DNA from: an uncultured delta proteobacterium
Lineage (GTDB): Bacteria > Desulfobacterota > Zymogenia > Zymogenales > Zymogenaceae
DNA: 22,967 bases
Direction of reading: 5' to 3'
Assembly: GCA_963792965.1 (NCBI GenBank)
Contig: CAWBYW010000036.1
Coordinates: forward strand, 1 to 22,967
Part shown: piece by piece, positions 514 through 13,651 of the stretch
Numbering within the stretch: the first letter of the stretch is position 1
Layout: each line of letters opens with the position of its first letter
Notes under the pieces: model-generated
The model's input: the letters and a program-made list of their open reading frames with translations, nothing else
What the model was told of the DNA's origin: nothing
Database searches by the model: none
Made by a program: the position numbers and the translations under genes

Positions 514-1059
514 TTTCTGGGTCACCACCTGGGAGACAAGGATCACGTCCGCTTTCTCGCGGATCGCCTCGCGGACCACCTCTTCCGAGCTCACCTGGGC
601 CCCCATGTTGATCGCCCGGAAACTCTTGTAGCGCTCAAGGCCGTAGTCCCCCGCGTACCCCTTCATGTTCATGATGGCGTCGATCCCGACGGTATGGGCG
701 TCGCTCTCGATACAGGCCCCAACGGTCGTGATGACCCGACCGAGCTTTTCCTCGATCATATGATCGATGACCTTCATGTTCGGGACCTTCGCCTCCTTCT
801 CCTGGAACCCCTCGATCTCGCTTATGTCCACCTGGTGGCGGACCCGTCCGTAGAGGACGACAAAGGTCATGTGCGAGCCGATGTCCGCGCTGTAGCTGAC
901 GTACGGGGTGTCGATCCCCATCTTGACGGCCAACCTCCGCGCGACCTCGTCGGCAAGCGGCCCCGACACATCGGGCAGGGTAAACGAGAGCTGAACGGCC
1001 CCGTCCCCCATCGAGTCGCCGTACGGCTTGACAAGCTTGCGAACTGTCTCTTGCTTCAT
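493..1059 (-). CDS. kamE: D-lysine 5,6-aminomutase beta subunit (B12-binding), C-terminally truncated
   Basis: VKPYGDSMGDGAVQLSFTLP dimerisation domain; cobalamin motif DAHTVG; IDAIMNMKGYAGDYGLERY; ADVILVSQVVTQK, after which similarity stops abruptly at ~514. Confidence 0.9.
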   Translation of the reverse strand: MKQETVRKLVKPYGDSMGDGAVQLSFTLPDVSGPLADEVARRLAVKMGIDTPYVSYSADIGSHMTFVVLYGRVRHQVDISEIEGFQEKEAKVPNMKVIDHMIEEKLGRVITTVGACIESDAHTVGIDAIMNMKGYAGDYGLERYKSFRAINMGAQVSSEEVVREAIREKADVILVSQVVTQKPAGSLP

Positions 1060-2598
1060 GGTCGTGCCTCAAGAAACGGATTGTAATAGTCCTCGGCCTT
1101 CTCGAGGACTCCCTCGGCCCCCTTGCCTCCCTTCGGGTCACGGTGGATGTCGGCAAACATCCCCCGCGAGAGCGCCTCAATGAGCGAGATATCGGCGATC
1201 TCGCCGAGCATCTCGTGCGCCTTCGAGAGGACCTCCGCGGCCCGCCGCTGGATGGTCCCCCCTGAGCGAAAGAGATCTCGTCGACGATCCCCTTCATGTT
1301 GTTCTTGGCGTACCGCGCCCCGGAAAGAGCCAGGTAGCGATCCCCCACAAAGGGCGTGTGGATCGCCTCGGTGAGGATCCCCAAGAGATGTATTGACTGG
1401 CCGGTCATGACCGAGCAAACGTTGAACATCATATCGGTCAGGTGCGTCTGGAACACGTTTCCCGTCACGTGTTTGGTCGGCGGCATGTACTTGATCGGCG
1501 CGTCGGGGAAGATCTCCCGGATCATCTGCGCCTGGGCAAGCTCCATGAGGAATCCTCCCTCGACGGTCGGATCGATCTCGAAGGCGTGGCCCAGCCCCAT
1601 GAGCTGGGCGGGGAGCCCCGACTTGTATGCGAACTCCTCGTTGATGAAATCGCTGGCCAACACGGTGTGCGCCTTTTCAACCGCGTCGGCGGTGGTCAGG
1701 TAGTTGTCCTCGCCGGTGTTGATGATAATCCCGGCCTTGGCGTTGATCATCCGGGAGAAATGCTGATCGACGAAGGTGCGGTAGGTATTGATGTTGCGGA
1801 AGATGATCCCGTACATCGAGTCGTTGAGCAGCATGTCCAGCCGTTCGAAGGCCGCCGCCACCGCGATCTCGGGCATGCAGAGGCCCGAGGCGTAGTTGAC
1901 CAGATTGATGTAGCGTCCCTGCTCGGCCAGCACTCGTCCAGCGCCGCGCGCATGATCCTGAAGTTTTCCTGGGTGGCGTAGGTGCCGCCGAAGCCCTCGG
2001 TGGTGGCCCCGAAGGGGACGTAGTCGAGCAGGCTCTGGGCGGTTGAGCGGATGACGGCGATGCAGTCGGCGCCGTTGCTCACCGCGCTTCTGGCCTGGGT
2101 CACGTCCTCGTAGATGTTGCCGGTGGCGACGATCACGTAGAGGAGCGGGGGCGCGCTCATCGGATATCTCATTCTGAGATCATCTCTTTCCTCCGCGCGT
2201 TTTGCGATCCTGGCAAGCCCCGCCTCGGCAAGGGGCCCGATGATCGCCCGGCGCCTTTCGCCCGACAGCTCCGGGACGTCCTTTACCCTGACCTTTCTTT
2301 CGGAGATAGCCCGGGCGGCCTCCGTCAGGGTGCCGCCCGTGTGCGCGATGAGATCGGCGCACGAAAGCGCTACCCCCGAGCGTAAGCCCCGCGCCTGCTT
2401 TATCGCGTCCACGAGGACGTTCGGGTAGGGGGTCCCGATTCTGTCCTTCCCGTCCAGGCCCAAAAGCCGTGTCACCGCCCGTTCAACGCTGTCCGTCGTA
2501 TGGGAGCGAATAAACCCCATGAGGTCTTCGGTGATCCTGTCGGCAAGGGTGCGGCACTCGTCGATCACTTTCCCGTCCAGGCCGAGTTTGCTTTCCAC
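1056..2598 (-). CDS. kamD: D-lysine 5,6-aminomutase alpha subunit, split by two single-base frameshifts (probable sequencing errors)
   Basis: Three consecutive frames give MESKLGLD...YVIVATGNIYEDVTQA...YVPFGATTEGFGGTYATQENFR / NYASGLCMPEIA...PIKYMPPTK...EAIHTP / GMFADIHRDPKGGKGAEGV...YYNPF. Shifts are at ~1933 and in the C-run 1257-1262. Confidence 0.9.
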
Positions 2599-5085: not shown

Positions 5086-5412
5086 ATGGAAGACAAGAGT
5101 AAAAGGGAAACGACGCAGAGCCAAAAAGACAACGCGCAGGGCCCCGAGAAGGTGGGACGACGCGAAGCCCTGAAGCGCATGGCCAAGGGACTCGCGCTGG
5201 TCGGGACGTTGGGCATCACCGCCGTTGTCACTCAGGGTCAGGATCAGTGTACTCCTCCCGTTCCCCCCGGTCTCTACTCAAACAGTTACTATAACTATTC
5301 AAACGCCTACTATAACTACTCCAACACATATTATAACTATTCTAACACCTACTACAACTACTCGAACGCATACTATAACTACTACAACAGCGGCGGCTAC
5401 TACAACTGGTAG
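5086..5412 (+). CDS. Putative RiPP-like/lipoprotein precursor 1 (RR leader, Cys55, YSNxYYN heptad core)
   Basis: AGGAGAAGACA-ATG; leader VGRREALKRMAKGLALVGTLGITAVVTQGQDQC; core of five YSN(S/A/T)YYN repeats; four paralogs adjacent. Confidence 0.88.
   Translation: MEDKSKRETTQSQKDNAQGPEKVGRREALKRMAKGLALVGTLGITAVVTQGQDQCTPPVPPGLYSNSYYNYSNAYYNYSNTYYNYSNTYYNYSNAYYNYYNSGGYYNW
5275..5379 (+). repeat. Five 21-nt coding tandem repeats (YSNxYYN)
   Basis: tactcaaacagttactataac / tattcaaacgcctactataac / tactccaacacatattataac / tattctaacacctactacaac / tactcgaacgcatactataac. Confidence 0.9.
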
Positions 5413-5596
5413 TCACAGACAGCACCGGCTCGCGTTGATTGGGGAGGCGATAACTTTGTTCATCGTCTCCCTTCTTGCCTTCCGCACGTTTTGCGTCTCC
5501 AGGAAAAGCGGACATCGTCTTCTCCTTTCCGCCCGCATTGGGTACCCGCCTCGAATTGGAGGCAATGTCTATTTTTAGCTGTCTATTGAAAAGCGC

Positions 5597-5625
5597 TTGA
5601 ATTATCCCTCCGGCTGTACTATACT
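5597..5625 (+). promoter_or_regulatory. Candidate sigma70 promoter for precursors 2-3
   Basis: TTGAAT 5597-5602, 17 nt spacer, TATACT 5620-5625; near-identical to 6868-6896. Confidence 0.6.
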
Positions 5626-5733
5626 TTTAAAAGGAAAATCTCACGATTTGACGGGCTGAGAACTCGTCATCGATACATCTAAAATTGTCTTGCCTGCTTT
5701 ATTTCGAGAACGCAATAAAACAAGGAGAAGACA

Positions 5734-6189
5734 ATGAAAGATAGACGGGGCACGGAGATACCGAAAGACAAAACCCCGTACGCCGACGAGCAGAAAAGAA
5801 TCGGCCGGCGCGAGGCGATGAAGCGAATGGCCAAGGGGATTGTATTGATCGGCACCCTCGGCATGGCGAGTATCGTCACCCGGACCGAGGGTGAATGCGC
5901 CTATTTTGACCATCACTCCAACACATACGATAATTACTACAATTACTACAACGCAAATCTGTTTTACTACAACGCATATTTCTACTACAACTATTACGAC
6001 TACTACGATTACCACAACTACTATAACGCATATTCCAATTACGTAAATTATTATGTCAACATATACGAATTCAATCCAGGATTCTACTATTTTGATTATT
6101 ACCGTGAGCGTGACCGCGACAGTGACCATGACCGAGATCGCGACCGTGATCGAGACCACGACCGCGACAGATACCGCCGCAACAGATGA
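5734..6189 (+). CDS. Putative precursor 2 (RR leader, Cys55, Y/N/D-rich core, Arg-Asp repeat tail)
   Basis: AGGAGAAGACA-ATG; IGRREAMKRMAKGIVLIGTLGMASIVTRTEGEC; YDNYYNYYN...YYDYYDYHNYYN; RERDRDSDHDRDRDRDRDHDRDR tail. Confidence 0.85.
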   Translation: MKDRRGTEIPKDKTPYADEQKRIGRREAMKRMAKGIVLIGTLGMASIVTRTEGECAYFDHHSNTYDNYYNYYNANLFYYNAYFYYNYYDYYDYHNYYNAYSNYVNYYVNIYEFNPGFYYFDYYRERDRDSDHDRDRDRDRDHDRDRYRRNR

Positions 6190-6365
6190 GCGCGCGGGTC
6201 GACGCGGCCACCCCCAGACAAGAATATGCCGGAGCAGACCGCGGGTTATACGCGAGGACACGGGACCTGTGGTTCCATGCCAAAGGTAATCGGCATCCCC
6301 CCAGGCTTGACCGGCGATCGTCTTTTCGCCTCACAGCTATAACGTGAAGAGCCGAGGAACGGGTA

Positions 6366-6686
6366 ATGGATGATAGAGAAAAGCGAGGAGCGCCCGCAAA
6401 CGAAATCCGGGGAGTCGGAAAAGAGGAGAAGATCGGCCGGCGCGAGGCGATGAAGCGCATCGCCAAAGGGATCGCGTTGGTCGGCTCCCTCGGGCTCACC
6501 GCCGCCGCGCTCCAGGGCCAGGGCGAGTGCGGATATGTAAACTACTACGTCAACTCATACTATAATTACTCCAACGCATATTATAACTATTACGATTACA
6601 GCAACTACTACAACTATTATAACTATTACAACTATAGCAATTCGTATTTCAACCACTTCCACCACTACCGCGACCATCACCATTAA
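6366..6686 (+). CDS. Putative precursor 3 (RR leader, Cys55, YxN core, His-rich tail)
   Basis: GAGGA RBS; IGRREAMKRIAKGIALVGSLGLTAAALQGQGEC; YVNYYVNSYYNYSNAYYNYYDYSNYYNYYNYYNYSN; HFHHYRDHHH. Confidence 0.87.
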   Translation: MDDREKRGAPANEIRGVGKEEKIGRREAMKRIAKGIALVGSLGLTAAALQGQGECGYVNYYVNSYYNYSNAYYNYYDYSNYYNYYNYYNYSNSYFNHFHHYRDHHH

Positions 6687-6867
6687 CGGGCCCGTGGGCC
6701 GAAACGTGACCCCCACAAAAGATCACGTCGGATAACCTCATCAACTTTTCGGTAAGGCAACAACCTGCCGGCGCGTACACCTGTTGCCGACCGCGCGGAT
6801 CATCGATCGCAAGAACTGCCATGCGGGAGATATCCGATAAAAAAGTCGACCATCAACTAACGTTCGT

Positions 6868-6896
6868 TTGACATATCCCTCCTTCTGTACTATACT
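6868..6896 (+). promoter_or_regulatory. Sigma70 promoter candidate for precursor 4
   Basis: TTGACA 6868-6873, 17 nt spacer, TATACT 6891-6896. Confidence 0.65.
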
Positions 6897-7062
6897 TTTA
6901 TAAAGATTATCCAAGGAATAACAGCACAAGCGAGGGAAAAGGAGAATAGGAATAGGCGGAACCGAAGACTACACCAGGACAGATCAAGAGCATCGGCACC
7001 GTTGAGTATAGAATTGTCTTACCTGCTTTATCGTGGAAACACAATGGAATAAGGAGGGGGCA

Positions 7063-7392
7063 ATGGAAAAAGGAAAAAGGAAGGGGACGCCGATTGAGGA
7101 GGGCGCGCAATCCCGTGAGACGGAAGGAATTTCACGGCGTGAGGCGATGAAACGTATGGCCAAGGGTGTGGCGCTGGTCGGGACCCTCGGTCTCACGAGT
7201 GCTGTCGTCGGGGGTCAGGGTGAGTGTGGATATGTAAACTACTACGTTAACGTGTATTATAACTATTTTGACTCGTATTCCAATTGGGGCTTCTTTTATT
7301 ACAACTTCCACGAAGGGTTTGAAGAGCGCGGGGAACACGAAGAGCATGAGGAGCACGAGGGCGGTGAGCGTCGCGGGGGGGGACGGCGTTAG
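7063..7392 (+). CDS. Putative precursor 4 (RR leader, Cys55, short YxN core, HEE-repeat tail)
   Basis: AAGGAGG at 7051-7057 before ATG 7063; this start puts the Cys at residue 55 as in paralogs 1-3. ISRREAMKRMAKGVALVGTLGLTSAVVGGQGEC; EHEEHEEHE tail. Confidence 0.85.
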   Translation: MEKGKRKGTPIEEGAQSRETEGISRREAMKRMAKGVALVGTLGLTSAVVGGQGECGYVNYYVNVYYNYFDSYSNWGFFYYNFHEGFEERGEHEEHEEHEGGERRGGGRR

Positions 7393-7601
7393 GACAGAGT
7401 GACCTGCCCGTGTGCGGTGCTTCACGAAGTTTTCCTTCATGTCGCCCTTCCTGCCCACTCCGCCACAATGTTGGCGGCATGGGGAGGCGCGAGACGGGCG
7501 GCTATCCCTTGGCTGGAGTCGTTTCCCGGGGGAGCCTGATATGCCATACCGATTTCGGGGCCGGATTCAATCCGCTCATATTTGACTGGGCGATTATGTA
7601 C

Positions 7602-7630
7602 TTGACGGAAGTCAGAGTATGCAGTATATT
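7602..7630 (+). promoter_or_regulatory. Candidate sigma70 promoter for precursor 5 and the maturase operon
   Basis: TTGACG 7602-7607, 17 nt spacer, TATATT 7625-7630. Confidence 0.55.
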
Positions 7631-7788
7631 TTTTAGACTACACGGCTCGTGAAATAGAAAAGAAACGCCGTTCAGGGGTCTAGTATATACGAAGGAATCG
7701 AGAAGTTCGAAACATCGCACAGTCTGGTAAGATCGTACTACCTTACTATCGAGTTTGCCCCTCTATGGAATTGAGCAGAGAATAGACA

Positions 7789-8142
7789 ATGAACGACAAA
7801 AAGAAGAGCGAAAAGCCGGCCGTCGAGAAGGGAGCTGAGAGCAACGAGAAGCTAAGCCGTCGCGAGGCCATGAAACGAATGGCAAAAGGCATCGCACTGG
7901 TCGGGACACTGGGCGTCACGGCCCTTGTAACGCAGGGTCAGGACGAGTGCACCGGCGGTTATAGCAACCTCTATTATAACTATTCGAACGCATACTACAA
8001 CTACTCCAACTCCTACTCTAACTATTCAAACTCCTATACCAACTATACAGAATTGTACTATAACTATTATAACTACAACAATTATTCCGATTACCAAAAT
8101 TATTCTGATTACCAGAATTATTACGATTACTACAACAATTAG
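7789..8142 (+). CDS. Putative precursor 5 (RR leader, Cys54, long YxN/YxD core)
   Basis: LSRREAMKRMAKGIALVGTLGVTALVTQGQDEC; YSNLYYNYSNAYYNYSNSYSNYSNSYTN...YSDYQNYSDYQNYYDYYNN. Confidence 0.88.
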   Translation: MNDKKKSEKPAVEKGAESNEKLSRREAMKRMAKGIALVGTLGVTALVTQGQDECTGGYSNLYYNYSNAYYNYSNSYSNYSNSYTNYTELYYNYYNYNNYSDYQNYSDYQNYYDYYNN

Positions 8143-8280: not shown

Positions 8281-9312
8281 GTGGCAAACCTCCTGATGAC
8301 ATCCCGATGCGTCCGCTCGTGCCCTTACTGCTTCGCCAAACGTGAGATGGACGACTCCGCCTCGGGCGGCGTTGTTTCCTGGGAAAACCTGATATACCTT
8401 ACCGATTTCCTGGCCGCATCCAATCAGGATCACATTTCTCTCCTCGGCGGTGAGCCCACACTTCATCCACAGTTCGTCGATATGGTGCTGTTCCTCCTTG
8501 AGCGCCGGTTTCACGTCACCGTATTCACCAGCGGCATCATGTCCGACAAACGCCTGGCCGAGCTGGCGGAGCACCTCGCCCCGCTGTCTGCCGAGCGGTT
8601 GAGCTTCGTCGTAAATCTCAACAACCCGGTTCAGACCCCCGCACCCGCCCACGAGAAGAGCCGTATCGAGCGGTTCCTCTCTCTGATGGGCCCCTGGTCG
8701 ACCCCGGGATTCAACATCTATCGGCCCGATTTCGATATCGAATTCCTGTTTGACCTCATCAGCCGTTACGGGATGAGACGGCACATTCGCCTCGGACTGG
8801 CATCCCCGATGCCCGGGGTGAGCAGCACATATATCCGCCCGGAAGAGGTCAGAGATATTGCCGCCAGGCTTTATACATTCAGCCCCCTCTTCGATCGGCT
8901 GGCGGTCAAGCCGGGGCTCGACTGCGGCTTTCCCCTGTGCGCATTTACCGACGAACAGCTCGGGTGGCTCACACGATATTCCGGCATGTTCAAGTTCGGC
9001 TGCGGCCCGGCCGTCGACCTGACCCCCGACCTGAACGTCTACGCATGTTTTCCCCTGTCGGGGTTTCATAAGAGGTCGCTGTTCGAGTTCGACTCCATGC
9101 ACCAGGTCAACGAGTTCTACATGGGGCTTTTCAACCGTATCCGCAGCGAGACGGCTGGTATCTATGAGGAGTGCGACGGCTGCGTCCACCGCGAGGAGGG
9201 GAGGTGTTCGGGAGGCGGCGCCTGCCAGGTGATGAACCGATTCGTGGGTGAAGCACCCGTGAGGCTTGTGGAGATAGAACGTGGGCTTTCCAAACCTTGT
9301 TTGTCCGTTTGA
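8281..9312 (+). CDS. Radical SAM protein with C-terminal SPASM/twitch-like Cys domain
   Basis: CVRSCPYC (CxxxCxxC), LLGGEPTLHP, CGFPLC, CGPAVDLTPDLNVYAC, CDGC...CSGGGAC. GGGGAG RBS before the GTG. Confidence 0.88.
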   Translation: MANLLMTSRCVRSCPYCFAKREMDDSASGGVVSWENLIYLTDFLAASNQDHISLLGGEPTLHPQFVDMVLFLLERRFHVTVFTSGIMSDKRLAELAEHLAPLSAERLSFVVNLNNPVQTPAPAHEKSRIERFLSLMGPWSTPGFNIYRPDFDIEFLFDLISRYGMRRHIRLGLASPMPGVSSTYIRPEEVRDIAARLYTFSPLFDRLAVKPGLDCGFPLCAFTDEQLGWLTRYSGMFKFGCGPAVDLTPDLNVYACFPLSGFHKRSLFEFDSMHQVNEFYMGLFNRIRSETAGIYEECDGCVHREEGRCSGGGACQVMNRFVGEAPVRLVEIERGLSKPCLSV

Positions 9313-10159
9313 TCAAGCGCTGATCGCGCGCCTTACCGATCGGGTAATCGTTCCCCGGGTCACGGACCCCTCCCTTATAGTTGACGCCGTGGGTCTTGTG
9401 CGCGCATCGACAAACCGCCTCTCCACGCTCATCCTCGACACCGGCCTTCCGGTAGCGGAAATACCCTTCAGCAAGGAGTGGGAAGGCGTGGCCCTGGCGG
9501 TCTTCGCCCCCTCGATGGGAAACTTTCGCGGGGTCGCCCGACACATCGAGTTGATCAGGCGCCTCGACCCCACGATCTACCTCCCGGTCGACAGCGGCGA
9601 GAACCTCTCGGCCCTTCGCGTACTCTCGTCGGTCGACGTCCGGTGCGCGGCTGTCTTCACGGGGCCCGGCCCGGTCGACTGGGAAGGGCTTTCCGATCTC
9701 ATGACCTACGCCATTCTCGGAACCGTCCCCCACGCATCGATCGAGCCCTTCGCCTATATCTCCGCCCGGTATCGAGCCGCCGGCTGGGTCAGGTGGGGCT
9801 CGGTCTTTTTTGACGATCCGCAGGACTTCTTCCACCTCGACAGAGAAGGGCGCGTGGCGCTGTCGGCCCGGGAGCTCGCCGAGGGAGCCTTCATCGAGGA
9901 AGACGTCGAGCGCCTCGACGATATCGCCAGCTACCCGGCCTACCGTCAGCGGATCGGCGTGCCGAAGGACATCTTCCTGGACTATCATCCCTGCTCGCGC
10001 TGCCCGGGGTGGCGCCTCTGCCTCGGGAGATTCGCGATCGGGTCGGAGGCACCGGAGGGGTGCGCCTCCTTTTTTAGCGAGATGATCGATCTCCTTCAGC
10101 AGTATCGGGGCCGTCAAAAGCAGTCGAAAAAGGAGCTCAATGACAACCGTCATCTTTAA
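9281..10159 (+). CDS. Radical SAM partner protein: no CxxxCxxC, C-terminal SPASM-like CxxC-x5-C...C cluster
   Basis: Overlaps both neighbours; ends HPCSRCPGWRLCLGRF...EGC; no SAM-cluster motif at the N-terminus. Confidence 0.7.
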   Translation: MGFPNLVCPFDQALIARLTDRVIVPRVTDPSLIVDAVGLVRASTNRLSTLILDTGLPVAEIPFSKEWEGVALAVFAPSMGNFRGVARHIELIRRLDPTIYLPVDSGENLSALRVLSSVDVRCAAVFTGPGPVDWEGLSDLMTYAILGTVPHASIEPFAYISARYRAAGWVRWGSVFFDDPQDFFHLDREGRVALSARELAEGAFIEEDVERLDDIASYPAYRQRIGVPKDIFLDYHPCSRCPGWRLCLGRFAIGSEAPEGCASFFSEMIDLLQQYRGRQKQSKKELNDNRHL

Positions 10160-12218
10160 GCCGACCGAGGCCTGCAACGGCAACTGTGTCTATTGTGAGG
10201 TGGTCAGGAAGGACCGCGAGCGGGGTGCACGGCTGCCCCAGGAGGCGCTCGAGCGATTCTTCATCAGGATCAATGAATTTCTCCTTGCGCGCCCGGAGGA
10301 GCGATTTCAGATCATCTGGCACGGCGGGGAGCCGCTGCTGTTGGGACCGGACTATTTCATGCGGGCCCATGAATACGAGAATAAGCACTGTCCCGAGACA
10401 AAAGATCGCATCACTCACGACATCCAGACCAACATCACCCTCTTCACGCGCGAATACGCGGAGGTATTCCGGACAATCGGGATAAGCCGGGTCAGCACGA
10501 GCTACGACCCGATCCCGGACGTTCGCGGGCTCGGGATTTCCACCGATTCGAAGGCCTATAATCGCCGCTTCATGGACGCGCTCTCGCTCCTCGACGAGGA
10601 GGGTTTCGACTGGGGGATGATCTATGTGGTCACCAAGCTGTCACTCGCGCACCCCCTCGATATCTTCTATTTCCTGACCAACCTCAATAAGACCGGTTCG
10701 GTCAAGTTCAACCCGATCTATTTCTACAAGCGGCGGATACAGGAGCTGGCGGTGACGCCCGAGGAGTTCGTCGAGTTTCTCGGCGCGATCTTTCCGGTCT
10801 GGTGGGAGCACCGGGAGCGTTTCCAGGGTACCCGGCCTTTTAACTCCTTTGTCGAGGCGATCATTGAAGGGAGCGGCGGCCTGGAATGCGCCGAGTCCGG
10901 GGCCTGCGCCGACTCACACTTTTCTCTGGGACCGTCCGGCACCTTTTCCCAGTGCGGTCGCTCCTCGGACTGGGGGCTTTTGGACTACGGTTCGGTCCAG
11001 GATCAGTCAATCGAGGCGGTATTCACCCACCCGCACAAGGAGCTATTCCGGTCACGATCACCCCGGCTCAAAGAGGGAGAGTGTAAGGGATGCCGATTCT
11101 GGGAGCTGTGTCACGGGGGATGTCCGCTGGACGCCTATGCCGAGACGGGTGATTGGCTAAAAAAATCTCCGCTCTGCGCCTATAGGAAGGGCTTCATCGA
11201 AAAGTACTTCGAGCCGATCACCGGGGTGCGCTACGAGCCGGACGCGCCAAGCCGCGTGCCCGAACCGGCGGACGAGCCAGCAGAGCCGAGCCGGGAAGTA
11301 AAGAAGATCGTGTCGTTCCCCTCCCCGCCGAAGAATAAACCCGTCTGGATCAATCCCTTCGGCGGACTTGGCGATACGGTGATCCTTTCCAGCGTCCTGA
11401 AGGCCGGGCTCGATAAAAACCCAAAAAGAAGGTTCAACGTAGTCGCCCGCACATCCTACGGCGAGCTGCTGCGGGGTCACCCGGCCGTCGACAAGATCGG
11501 GAATCCGCCCCCCGGCACTTATGTCGTCTCCACCGCCTATTGGGATCACCCCGACTTCGGCGGCCCCGGCGGGAGGCCCTTCGGTATTCTTTCCCGAATG
11601 CTCGGGCTTGATCTTCCTCAAGAGGGGCCCTTGTTCGTCCCGCCACCGATCGAGATCGACGAGCTCCTTGTCTCGCGCATCCCGTTTTCCGGCAGGAACG
11701 TCCTGATCTGCCCCTCCTGTTCTTCACCGCGGAAGGAGATGGAACTGAGCACCTGGGAGGCTGTGGTCACCGAGCTATCCGCGCAGGGGGTCTTCGTCGC
11801 CCAGGCAGGAAGGCGGCATGATCGCTACGTCCGGGGGGCTTTCAGCCTCCTCGGCGTCACCACCCCGCGTCAGCTCATTGCCCTCGTCTCAAGATTTGAC
11901 GCCATAGTGGCGACTGACAACTTCATGGGACCCGCTGCGCATCTGGTCGGGAGGCCGGCCGTCGTCCTCTGGGGGCCGACCGACCCGGCAACCTTCGGCT
12001 ACCCTTCCCAGACCCACCTGTTGGGGCACCGAATCTGCCAGAACCCCGAGGGATGCCTTGCCCGCGGACGGGCGACGCTCTATGCGACCCGCTGCCCCCT
12101 CGGGCCGTCTCACTGCATGAACCGGATAGAAGCCAACGCGATCGTCGCGGCGGTGAAAAAAGTCTTGGCGGGCGCCAGCGAGAAAGGAAAGGCGATCGGC
12201 ACCGGTCCTAAAACGTAA
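10140..12218 (+). CDS. Radical SAM/SPASM maturase fused to a C-terminal GT9 (heptosyltransferase-like) glycosyltransferase
   Basis: KPTEACNGNCVYC, IWHGGEPLL, IQTN, CAESGAC...QCGR...CKGCRFWELCHGGCP...LC; Pro-rich linker; then GGLGDTVILSSVL, SPRKE, TDNF...AAHLVGRPAVVLWGPTDP and a C-terminal Cys cluster typical of GT9. Confidence 0.88.
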   Translation: MTTVIFKPTEACNGNCVYCEVVRKDRERGARLPQEALERFFIRINEFLLARPEERFQIIWHGGEPLLLGPDYFMRAHEYENKHCPETKDRITHDIQTNITLFTREYAEVFRTIGISRVSTSYDPIPDVRGLGISTDSKAYNRRFMDALSLLDEEGFDWGMIYVVTKLSLAHPLDIFYFLTNLNKTGSVKFNPIYFYKRRIQELAVTPEEFVEFLGAIFPVWWEHRERFQGTRPFNSFVEAIIEGSGGLECAESGACADSHFSLGPSGTFSQCGRSSDWGLLDYGSVQDQSIEAVFTHPHKELFRSRSPRLKEGECKGCRFWELCHGGCPLDAYAETGDWLKKSPLCAYRKGFIEKYFEPITGVRYEPDAPSRVPEPADEPAEPSREVKKIVSFPSPPKNKPVWINPFGGLGDTVILSSVLKAGLDKNPKRRFNVVARTSYGELLRGHPAVDKIGNPPPGTYVVSTAYWDHPDFGGPGGRPFGILSRMLGLDLPQEGPLFVPPPIEIDELLVSRIPFSGRNVLICPSCSSPRKEMELSTWEAVVTELSAQGVFVAQAGRRHDRYVRGAFSLLGVTTPRQLIALVSRFDAIVATDNFMGPAAHLVGRPAVVLWGPTDPATFGYPSQTHLLGHRICQNPEGCLARGRATLYATRCPLGPSHCMNRIEANAIVAAVKKVLAGASEKGKAIGTGPKT

Positions 12219-12985
12219 TGCACCCCATCCTCTTCACCATCGGCCGTCACCTCGTCTACGGCTACGGTTTTTTCGTGACCCTCGGCTATCTCTCGGGCGT
12301 CGTACTCTTTCTCGCGCTCGTCGGCCGTGAGGGGCTCCCCGTCTGGACGGGAGTTGACCTCATCCTCTGGATGCTTCCCTCGGCCCTGATTGGGGCAAAG
12401 CTTCTCTTCATCGTAACCAACTGGGACGAATTCGTCATGCAGCCTTCCCCCACCGCGGGCGGCTGGTCCTTCCAGGGGGCGCTCCTCGGGGCGCTCGCCC
12501 TGGCCCTTTTCCTTTTCAGGAGGCGGCGGCTTGACGCTTGGCGGTGGCTCGACACCGCAGCGCCGTCGCTTGCGCTCGTCGCCGCAGTGGGCAGGATTGG
12601 GTGCCTCATGGCAGGCTGCTGCTACGGCTCCCCCACGAGTCTGCCCTGGGGCGTCGTCTTCACCAAATCGACGGTCGCCCCCCTCAACACCCCCCTGCAC
12701 CCGACCCAGGTCTACTACCTGATAGCAAATCTCGCCATATGTGTTACGCTGCTGGCGCGCAGGAGGACGGCGGCTTTTCGCGGAGAGCTGATTCTCCTGT
12801 TCGTCCTCCTCTACACGACCTCCCGCAGCATAATCGACCCCTTCCGGGGTGGTGTCGAAAAGACCTACCTGTGGGGCACCGTCACCGCCTACCAGATCAT
12901 CACGATCACCGCGATTATCGTCGTGGCTCTCCTCTACCTCCGAATGAGGGAGAGGAATAAGACGGAAGACCGGATCGCCGATTGA
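12218..12985 (+). CDS. lgt: Prolipoprotein diacylglyceryl transferase family protein (cluster-encoded Lgt)
   Basis: MHPILFTIG...YGFF, IGAKL, GGWSFQGA, LDTAAPSLAL...GRIGCLMAGCCYGSPTSLPWGVVF...LHPTQVY, RSIIDPFRG. TAATG coupling to the upstream gene. Confidence 0.88.
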   Translation: MHPILFTIGRHLVYGYGFFVTLGYLSGVVLFLALVGREGLPVWTGVDLILWMLPSALIGAKLLFIVTNWDEFVMQPSPTAGGWSFQGALLGALALALFLFRRRRLDAWRWLDTAAPSLALVAAVGRIGCLMAGCCYGSPTSLPWGVVFTKSTVAPLNTPLHPTQVYYLIANLAICVTLLARRRTAAFRGELILLFVLLYTTSRSIIDPFRGGVEKTYLWGTVTAYQIITITAIIVVALLYLRMRERNKTEDRIAD

Positions 12986-12995
12986 CCCGGATGTT

Positions 12996-13520
12996 CTAAC
13001 GACTCGGCTCGTTCACCGGCGGCTGGAACTGTCCATCCACGGGGCGCCAGCGGTCCGTGGATTTAGGATCGATATGGTAGCCGATGTCTTTTTCGTCGTC
13101 GAAGACGTGAAGGGGACGGAAGGCGTCGTTGTCGGTGATCTCCCAAATATCAAGGTTCGGGTCGTCGTCGAGGTTGGCCCAGGCCCGGGCGAGAAAGGCC
13201 GTGCAGTCGGCCGATATAATTGACCATTCGTAGCGGCGGGTCTTTGGCGGGGAAAAATCGAGCACTGCGGGATCCCGGGAAAAGCAGTGATGCGTCGCAT
13301 AGTAGCTCATCTCGGAGTCATAAAGGGACGCAAGGATATCTTCGGCTTCCTTCTGTTTTGGCTCGGTATAGGCGGATCGAAAAATAGGGATCGTGACGGC
13401 GAAAAAACCGACGGCAAGACAGATCAGGACGGCGGCTGCGATGAGTATGAGGGTCCTCGTATCTGTAAACCGGCTCGGTTTCTTGGAAGAATCGAAAGCT
13501 CGATCTTTCTTCTGAGGCAT
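12996..13520 (-). CDS. Type IV pilin-like membrane protein lacking the prepilin cleavage motif
   Basis: TM helix, then IPIF...KQKEAEDILASLYDSEMSYYA...DFSP...RY...FLARAWANLDDDPNLDIWEI, resembling the deltaproteobacterial PilA globular region. No G|FTLIE. Start at ATG 13520 is tentative. Confidence 0.6.
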   Translation of the reverse strand: MPQKKDRAFDSSKKPSRFTDTRTLILIAAAVLICLAVGFFAVTIPIFRSAYTEPKQKEAEDILASLYDSEMSYYATHHCFSRDPAVLDFSPPKTRRYEWSIISADCTAFLARAWANLDDDPNLDIWEITDNDAFRPLHVFDDEKDIGYHIDPKSTDRWRPVDGQFQPPVNEPSR

Positions 13521-13651
13521 GTCAATCCTGCCACGTCCTTCGTTAATCGACCGGTCCGACCATAACGGGTCGGCCGATCGTCGAGCCGCCCTGACGCCTG
13601 CCACAAGACAATATCAGCTCTGACCGTTACTCTTGCCCGACTTCGTCGCCC

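Follow-up and report, generated by a model that had tools for sequence, protein, structure and literature searches.

The subject of this analysis is a group of five short open reading frames (ORFs), together with the enzyme genes that follow them, in a stretch of 22,967 nucleotides from an uncultured delta proteobacterium of the family Zymogenaceae (Desulfobacterota; GenBank assembly GCA_963792965.1, contig CAWBYW010000036.1, positions 1 to 22,967 of the forward strand). This whole stretch is called the window. Each of the five ORFs would specify the precursor of a ribosomal peptide, with a Tyr/Asn-rich repeat core and with a single cysteine at the end of a signal-like leader. They are followed by genes for two radical S-adenosylmethionine (radical SAM, rSAM) enzymes, for a 292-residue protein and for a paralogue of lipoprotein diacylglyceryl transferase (Lgt), which makes the cluster a candidate source of lipid-anchored, radical-SAM-modified peptides.

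All five precursor genes lie on the forward strand. The first (5086..5412, 108 residues) has an arginine pair at residues 25-26, a hydrophobic region, Cys55 (codon 5248-5250) preceded by QDQ, and a Tyr/Asn-rich YYNYSN core. The second (5734..6189, 151 residues) has EGE before Cys55 (codon 5896-5898), a Tyr-rich core and an Arg/Asp/His-rich tail. The third (6366..6686, 106 residues) and the fourth (7063..7392, 109 residues counted from the ATG at 7063) both have QGE before Cys55 (codons 6528-6530 and 7225-7227), the fourth with a Glu/His-rich tail, and the fifth (7789..8142, 117 residues) has QDE before Cys54 (codon 7948-7950). The ORF listing begins the fourth gene at a GTG at 7033, and the Cys55 numbering needs the ATG at 7063; the latter start is backed by a conserved repeat of a ribosome-binding site and an ATG. 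None of the five precursors matched a family in Pfam or NCBIfam. Their alignment showed R25, R26, E27, A28, K30, R31, A33, K34, G35, L38, G40, L42, G43 and C55 to be invariant, and a Tyr/Asn-rich repeat core past the cysteine in all five copies. A preliminary description of this DNA, made from the sequence alone, had reported the motif [GS]RREA[LM]KR[MI]AKG in all five copies, a hydrophobic stretch of about 15 residues, a sole cysteine at residue 55 (54 in copy 5) and the five triplets that precede it. The alignment confirmed all four statements, with an uncharged run of 15-19 residues in each copy and, for the cysteine position, on condition that copy 4 starts at 7063. The same description had called the cysteine invariant, which holds for the five copies of the window and fails in the wider family, where two paralogues of the same genome have no cysteine. 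Because the five copies are homologues, their agreement reflects descent rather than chance; the meaningful signal is the conservation of the residues around the cysteine (the box) across genera.

Charged tails (RDRD...H or EEHEEHE...RR) are found at 6100-6186 and 7310-7389 and in the second precursor of locus L043 (duplicated as L056), and other precursors terminate in ...YYNW. The two tail types point to two product subtypes inside one cluster. Upstream of precursors 2 and 4 lies a 47-nt repeat (5594-5640 and 6865-6911, 81% identical) that contains a promoter-like TTGAAT/TTGACA-17-TATACT, and a similar site is present at 7602-7630, upstream of precursor 5. Ten such promoter-like sites were observed, against 3.8 expected. 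The precursor copies seem to have promoters of their own.

The first enzyme gene (rSAM1, 8281..9312, forward strand) encodes a radical SAM protein of 343 residues that scores 50.3 bits on PF04055 (cut-off 29.5), with its cysteine motif near the N-terminus; it reached no specific NCBIfam family and is kept in all related loci. The second gene (9281..10159, forward strand) encodes the 292-residue protein, for which no Pfam or NCBIfam family was found. Its C-terminal CxxCxGWxxCxG...C is conserved, and there is no CxxxCxxC. A structure model (mean pLDDT 73.9) gave SuiB, anSME and ChlB as the best folds (Foldseek E 1e-3 to 1e-2, TM ~0.5), and on this model the protein is read as a pseudo-radical-SAM/SPASM partner. 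The third gene (10140..12218, forward strand) encodes an enzyme resembling rSAM/SPASM peptide maturases, with a GT9-like domain at residues 516-620. Its nearest models are DynA, anSME and DarE, all below cut-off: none of the rSAM/SPASM equivalog models (DynA, DarE, triceptide enzymes) was reached, the best being DynA with 141.2 bits against a cut-off of 450, and the matches to the PapB and StsB families were weak and likewise below cut-off. The Lgt paralogue (12218..12985, forward strand, 255 residues), divergent in sequence, begins one base inside the stop of the preceding gene. It is followed on the reverse strand by a convergent gene (12996..13604) for a pilin/GspG-like protein with one N-terminal transmembrane helix. 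The pilin/GspG-like gene is convergent to the Lgt gene in all eight complete Lgt-bearing clusters and absent from clusters without Lgt; its product has no evident prepilin cleavage motif. Scans with Pfam and NCBIfam found no transporter or leader peptidase encoded in the cluster.

In its general plan the cluster resembles the systems around HxsA-, GrrA- and TIGR04117-type targets and those with triceptide- or dynobactin-type maturases, where a low-complexity repeat peptide also stands beside paired rSAM/SPASM enzymes. The nearest rSAM models overall are DynA, DarE, AmcB, GrrM/OscB, YhhB and HxsB/HxsC, and no model was matched at its cut-off. To our knowledge, a pseudo-rSAM partner, a GT9 fusion and an Lgt are not part of these systems.

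The distribution of the peptides and the enzymes was followed separately. A word-indexed search with the leader returned only three other proteins, all with leaders that end in QDEC. A profile of the leader, run against 401 genomes of the phylum (400 plus that of the window), matched strongly in the window's genome and in eight of the nine other genomes of the family, and weakly elsewhere. With the 292-residue protein as the marker, 20 metagenome contigs were found, together with 29 loci in reference genomes from Thermodesulfobacteriota, Acidobacteriota, Phycisphaerae, Spirochaetota, Nitrospirae, Bacteroidota, Ignavibacteria and Alphaproteobacteria. The core of rSAM1, the 292-residue protein and the rSAM/SPASM enzyme is present in all of them, with GT9 fused, separate or absent, and nearly all have a Tyr-rich peptide upstream that carries [RK]R-x-A-[LIM]-K-R and then a hydrophobic stretch. 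Among 23 distinct precursors found beside this enzyme core outside the family, 19 have RR and four, all from Bacteroidota, have KK or KR. rSAM1, a pseudo-rSAM protein and an rSAM/SPASM enzyme, in some loci joined by GT9, thus form a widespread uncurated system that acts on Tyr-rich repeat peptides with a signal-like leader and spans at least eight phyla. The GT9-like domain is separate or missing in many phyla (L053:11326-13322 and several other loci), and a second rSAM/SPASM paralogue is present in L067, L069, L075 and L104.

The presence of the cysteine box was then compared with the presence of an Lgt gene. Sixty-three stretches were considered; duplicates were collapsed (L056 into L043, L070 into L045, L082 into L047, L071 and L101 into L051, L062 into L054, L084 into L053, L105 into L072, L099 into L098 and L100 into L068), and a stretch had to show a recognisable precursor and to extend by at least 1 kb past the SPASM/GT9 gene. 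The second requirement removed, among others, L089, L090 and L093, which carry the box, and the first removed L067 and L074, in which the pattern found no precursor. The box [QE][DG][EQ]C was found in all eight Lgt-bearing clusters (the window, L043, L045, L047, L049, L051, L052 and L094) and in none of the 21 clusters without an Lgt within the stretch. Three of these 21 have a canonical lipobox instead (L069 ...LTVSC, L073 ...FLSSC, L075 ...SWTAC), L076 has a near miss (...LIPGC), and most of the other precursors from Lgt-less clusters have AxA-like ends and no cysteine. Since three distant relatives have a canonical lipobox, lipoprotein-type ends recur among these peptides. Several genes of L045 and L047 (rSAM/GT9, Lgt and kdd) are broken up into separate tblastn segments, a sign that these assemblies may be prone to frameshifts.

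The same comparison bears on another use of the cysteine, as the donor of a thioether (of sacti or ranthi type) or of another cross-link made by a radical SAM enzyme. The cysteine is indeed single and lies directly upstream of the repeat core, and the faint PapB and StsB matches of the SPASM enzyme are of the kind that this explanation calls for. The same three enzymes, however, also stand beside precursors that have no cysteine (L057, L058, L060, L061, L063 and L098, for example, in addition to the two orphan Cys-less paralogues of the window's genome), so the rSAM enzymes do not need it, and the SPASM enzyme comes nearest to models of anSME and of enzymes that make C-C or ether cross-links. 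The gene that tracks the cysteine is the Lgt gene, not an rSAM gene, and a thioether role is considered very improbable. The GT9 domain was also considered as an enzyme that targets the cysteine and was rejected, as GT9 occurs in clusters whose precursors are free of cysteine.

The genome of the window (88.85% complete) encodes three Lgts, one LspA and one Lnt, so that all three enzymes of the lipoprotein pathway are present. The first Lgt resembles that of E. coli (213.5 bits on TIGR00544, with FHGG and GRIGNFINGE motifs), and the second adjoins lspA (143.7 bits). The third, that of the cluster, matches PF01790 with 156.4 bits (cut-off 24.9) over positions 1-238 of 240 and falls short of both more specific models, with 89.9 bits on TIGR00544 (cut-off 118.9) and 158.9 on NF000778 (cut-off 334). 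A control search with NF000778 for the GC...GCC Lgt type as the sole Lgt of a genome found no control genome above the cut-off. Across the bacterial family the first two types occur in ten of ten genomes and the third in nine; in the tenth, the contig with the cluster stops at the precursor. In a tree of 22 Lgts from the family, those of the clusters group together in a single clade (100/99), placed among the lspA-linked type. The third Lgt of G157, a genome that has no Tyr-rich precursor, is sister to the Lgts from the Tyr-peptide clusters and does not stand beside such a cluster. It lies directly downstream of a gene for a 155-residue protein (L085:561-1028, contig C277) with SRRKFLK, a hydrophobic stretch, ...GASC and CTxxC repeats. 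This protein resembles TIGR04117 (E 3.6e-6, below cut-off), and its box fits the canonical lipobox. The Lgt clade is thus tied twice to repeat proteins that have a Tat-type signal and a cysteine. A related Cys-rich, TIGR04117-like CTxxC-repeat protein with an SRRVFMK Tat motif is encoded elsewhere in the window's genome (L088:1393-1833, reverse strand, contig C33), where it adjoins an rSAM/SPASM gene.

The leader itself resembles a Tat signal. The arginine pair stands at residues 25-26 (24-25 in copy 5) in all five precursors, preceded by G or S, and the uncharged run that follows (best 12-residue segment 1.90-2.23 on the Kyte-Doolittle scale) exceeds the length of at least about 13 residues taken for a Tat signal. 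Compared with the consensus S/T-R-R-x-F-L-K, the precursors read [GS]-R-R-E-A-[LM]-K, with Ala at the F position, and have extra basic residues, R31 and K34, ahead of the hydrophobic region. The leader profile also matches the SRR-x-F-[LI]-K signals of exported proteins of 380-520 residues from other families of the phylum; because these are textbook N-termini, a profile sees the leader as akin to a Tat signal. The distant relatives L073 and L075 reach 14.2 and 15.6 bits on TIGR01409 (cut-off 16.7). One TatC and six TatA/B/E matches were found in the host genome.

On these grounds we favour, with about even confidence, a reading in which the five genes encode radical-SAM-modified peptides that leave the cytoplasm by a Tat-like route and are lipidated at the cysteine by the cluster's own Lgt, as a radical SAM counterpart of the ribosomally made peptides with post-translational modifications (RiPPs) known as DAG-RiPPs. 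As the gene order suggests, the core would be modified in the cytoplasm by the two radical SAM enzymes and the pseudo-rSAM partner, perhaps also by the GT9-like domain; that the modifications are cyclophane or ether cross-links is guessed from the models that come nearest. The N-terminal fifty-odd residues would then serve as the twin-arginine-type signal that carries the modified peptide across the inner membrane. The Tat system accepts folded or cross-linked cargo. The cluster Lgt would finally transfer a diacylglyceryl group to the cysteine of [QE]-[DG]-[EQ]-Cys, with which the signal ends in this bacterial family, and so anchor the peptide in the membrane. We infer this last step from the co-occurrence of box and Lgt and from the location of the paralogue's divergence. 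The more specific proposal, that a specialised Lgt carried by the cluster recognises the acidic Q-[DG]-E-Cys on Tat-exported, radical-SAM-cross-linked Tyr-rich peptides, is put forward tentatively, as its chances fall somewhat short of even.

Several known systems come near to this one. Tat-dependent lipoproteins occur in Streptomyces and haloarchaea. Like them, the window peptides combine an RR motif, a moderately hydrophobic region and a cysteine (L069, L073 and L075 fit both motifs); unlike them, they have A for F after RR-x, extra basic residues, a polar spacer, and D, E or Q at -2/-1. With the housekeeping Lgt (E. coli, PDB 5AZB/5AZC) the cluster Lgt shares the PF01790 fold family over its full length, and it differs in its score below the TIGR00544 cut-off, in a rebuilt arm-2/HGGL region and in its place as a third copy inside a peptide-maturation operon. 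The DAG-RiPPs provide a precedent. As described in PMC13056109 (PNAS 2026), some MNIO-modified RiPP precursors have SPII (signal peptidase II) signals with canonical lipoboxes and are triacylated by the host pathway, their cysteine was shown to be S-diacylglycerylated and N-acylated, and the authors expect examples beyond the MNIOs. The DAG-RiPPs resemble the window peptides in that a short precursor stands beside cytoplasmic modifying enzymes and has an N-terminal signal with a conserved cysteine at its end. They are distinguished by MNIO enzymes, a signal predicted as SPII by SignalP, a canonical lipobox and the use of the host Lgt, LspA and Lnt, whereas the window has radical SAM enzymes, a twin-arginine-like signal, an acidic box that does not fit the canonical lipobox of the host pathway, and an Lgt encoded in the cluster.

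Several observations on the box, the leader and the enzyme weigh against the favoured reading. No precursor of the window fits the canonical lipobox, tested as [LVI][ASTVI][GAS]C, a PS51257-like pattern. This bears out the earlier statement that the box is non-canonical and polar or acidic, and at the same time it is a difficulty for lipidation: an acidic or amide residue stands at -1, with about six polar residues between the hydrophobic run and the cysteine. LspA and the E. coli Lgt prefer a small residue at -1. Furthermore, the hydrophobic region of the five copies is followed by small residues (T-Q-G, A-A-A, V-G-G), and small residues at -1/-3 would permit cleavage by signal peptidase I. 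The cysteine is also not universal. Among 29 distinct leader strings of the window type, 23 have [QE][DG][EQ]C (QDEC in 17, QGEC in four, QDQC and EGEC in one each); of the other six, four lack a cysteine, another is truncated, and L092 belongs to the non-family type and has a different signal end. The four full-length leaders without cysteine comprise two from the window's genome, which lie on another contig and keep the RR motif and the hydrophobic region (L008:1240-1650, reverse strand, and L012:1453-1878, forward strand), and two inside Lgt-bearing clusters of another genus. In L045:3493-3675 (genome G247) a precursor copy ends at 61 residues, directly before the Cys box. Genome-wide pattern searches were not used as evidence: a loose expression for an uncharged run followed by [DEQ]C matched 137 ORFs, mostly spurious and with no second clear substrate, and a canonical-like lipobox expression matched 218 ORFs with an unquantified false-positive rate.

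In the main rival explanation the leader is a true export signal that signal peptidase I cuts a few residues before the cysteine. The cysteine would then belong to the mature peptide, for use in a disulfide dimer, in metal binding or in attachment, and the Lgt would serve other substrates. The small residues directly before the box in all five copies, the AxA-like, Cys-free ends of most relatives in other phyla, the Cys-less paralogues in the same genome and the same clusters, and the failure of the box at the lipobox rule all agree with such cleavage. It leaves unexplained, however, why box and Lgt occur together in eight of eight clusters and are jointly missing from all 21 others, why four genera retain Q-[DG]-E-C despite diverging cores, and why the sister Lgt stands beside a protein with a Tat signal and a cysteine. 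Cleavage by signal peptidase I is regarded as unlikely, although far from negligible.

With regard to the enzyme side of the proposed lipidation, every Lgt-bearing cluster comes from a single bacterial family or from close relatives of it, so the association between Lgt and box may reflect a single evolutionary event. A second LspA was found neither in the genome nor in the cluster, which leaves the single LspA of the host. In addition, because the box of the protein beside the G157 Lgt is canonical, a dedicated Lgt need not exist owing to an odd box. The preliminary description had suggested that the unusual box explains the dedicated Lgt; the co-occurrence of the two agrees with this, though it traces to one lineage, and the canonical box beside the sister Lgt weakens the odd box as the sole reason. 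The residues of the enzyme give a mixed picture too. When the cluster Lgt was mapped onto E. coli Lgt (5AZB) and the essential residues Y26, H103, R143, N146, E151, G154, Y235, R239, E243 and R246 were compared, Y16, R126, G137, Y199, R203 and R210 were found to correspond to Y26, R143, G154, Y235, R239 and R246, and the equivalent of D129 is also kept. The remaining essential positions have changed (H103 to Q86, N146 to C129, E151 to C134, E243 to D207). According to PMC4728403, E. coli Lgt with H103A/N/Q/R/Y, E151A/Q or R143A/E/K, or with mutations of R239 or E243, fails to complement. The lspA-linked paralogue has the same N146C and E151C changes, with Y at position 103, and the cysteine substitutions are thus subfamily traits rather than signs of decay. 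A decayed pseudogene was considered and rejected, as the frame is open, the catalytic arginine pair remains in place and four genera have conserved the gene.

The clade of the cluster Lgt is most rebuilt at W-[ED]-G-G-[LM]-x-x-[HY], which corresponds to the arm-2/HGGL region of the E. coli enzyme. This region is proposed by Mao et al. as the binding site of the lipobox peptide (PMC4728403). A rebuilt peptide-binding region fits a changed box, and it would fit a changed or reduced activity equally well. A complex prediction for the cluster Lgt with precursor residues 18-70, made with alignments, scored 0.02 against a mark of 0.32 and was counted neither way.

The Tat profiles themselves also count among the difficulties, because the five precursors matched neither Pfam TAT_signal (PF10518) nor NCBIfam TIGR01409 at E values up to 10. 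The claim of a Tat signal in the preliminary description thus stood as regards the RR motif, the hydrophobic run and the cross-matches of the profile to genuine signals, and fell short at the Tat profiles. By a further explanation, the leader would be a RiPP leader that only resembles a Tat signal and docks the rSAM and pseudo-rSAM proteins, with no Tat export and with the Lgt as a bystander or an enzyme of other activity. Apart from the Tat profiles, it would account for the conservation of A-[LIM]-K-R-[IM]-A beyond the needs of Tat and for a weak resemblance of copy 5 to the N-terminus of TIGR04117, a radical-SAM-target family (E 0.013). As A-[LIM]-K-R is retained in the four Bacteroidota precursors in which RR has given way to KK or KR, the one observation that fits the maturase recognition element suggested in the preliminary description, a second role of this conserved segment as an enzyme docking site is probable on the pattern of conservation. 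Docking as the sole role is another matter: nearly all relatives have a hydrophobic stretch and an AxA-like or lipobox end, which a cytoplasmic docking peptide would not need, the TIGR04117-like neighbours carry the textbook signals SRRKFLK and SRRVFMK, and the cluster supplies neither a transporter nor a leader peptidase of its own. A leader that serves for docking alone is considered improbable.

Literature searches gave no precedent for the full combination. Nothing was found that joins Lgt, radical SAM enzymes and precursor peptides, a result that covers the accessible part of PMC13056109, whose supplements may list more precursor classes. There was likewise no report of a SPASM-heptosyltransferase RiPP, nothing relevant on Tat signals together with RiPP, radical SAM, lipobox or cyclophane, and nothing on radical SAM target peptides with twin-arginine signals in Syntrophobacter. 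Lgt is regarded as one housekeeping enzyme that follows one recognition rule, on which lipoprotein predictors rest. If the more specific proposal of a specialised Lgt is true, the cluster Lgt would be the first lipoprotein diacylglyceryl transferase dedicated to a natural-product-like peptide, and its box the first natural alternative lipobox to come with an enzyme of its own. Such a private Lgt, with its different box, would mean that lipid anchoring can be re-targeted through gene duplication. It would also extend the RiPP-lipoprotein hybrids to radical SAM chemistry and Tat export, and provide a compact pair of enzyme and tag for lipidating engineered peptides.

Elsewhere in the window, the gene for the alpha subunit of lysine 5,6-aminomutase (635-2598, reverse strand) is broken into two ORFs that overlap, 1747-2598 and 635-1933, and that correspond to positions 1-219 and 221-444 of PF09043, respectively. 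The split gene lies within a lysine-fermentation block with kamB and a 3,5-diaminohexanoate dehydrogenase gene, and probably reflects a frameshift, be it an assembly error or a broken gene.

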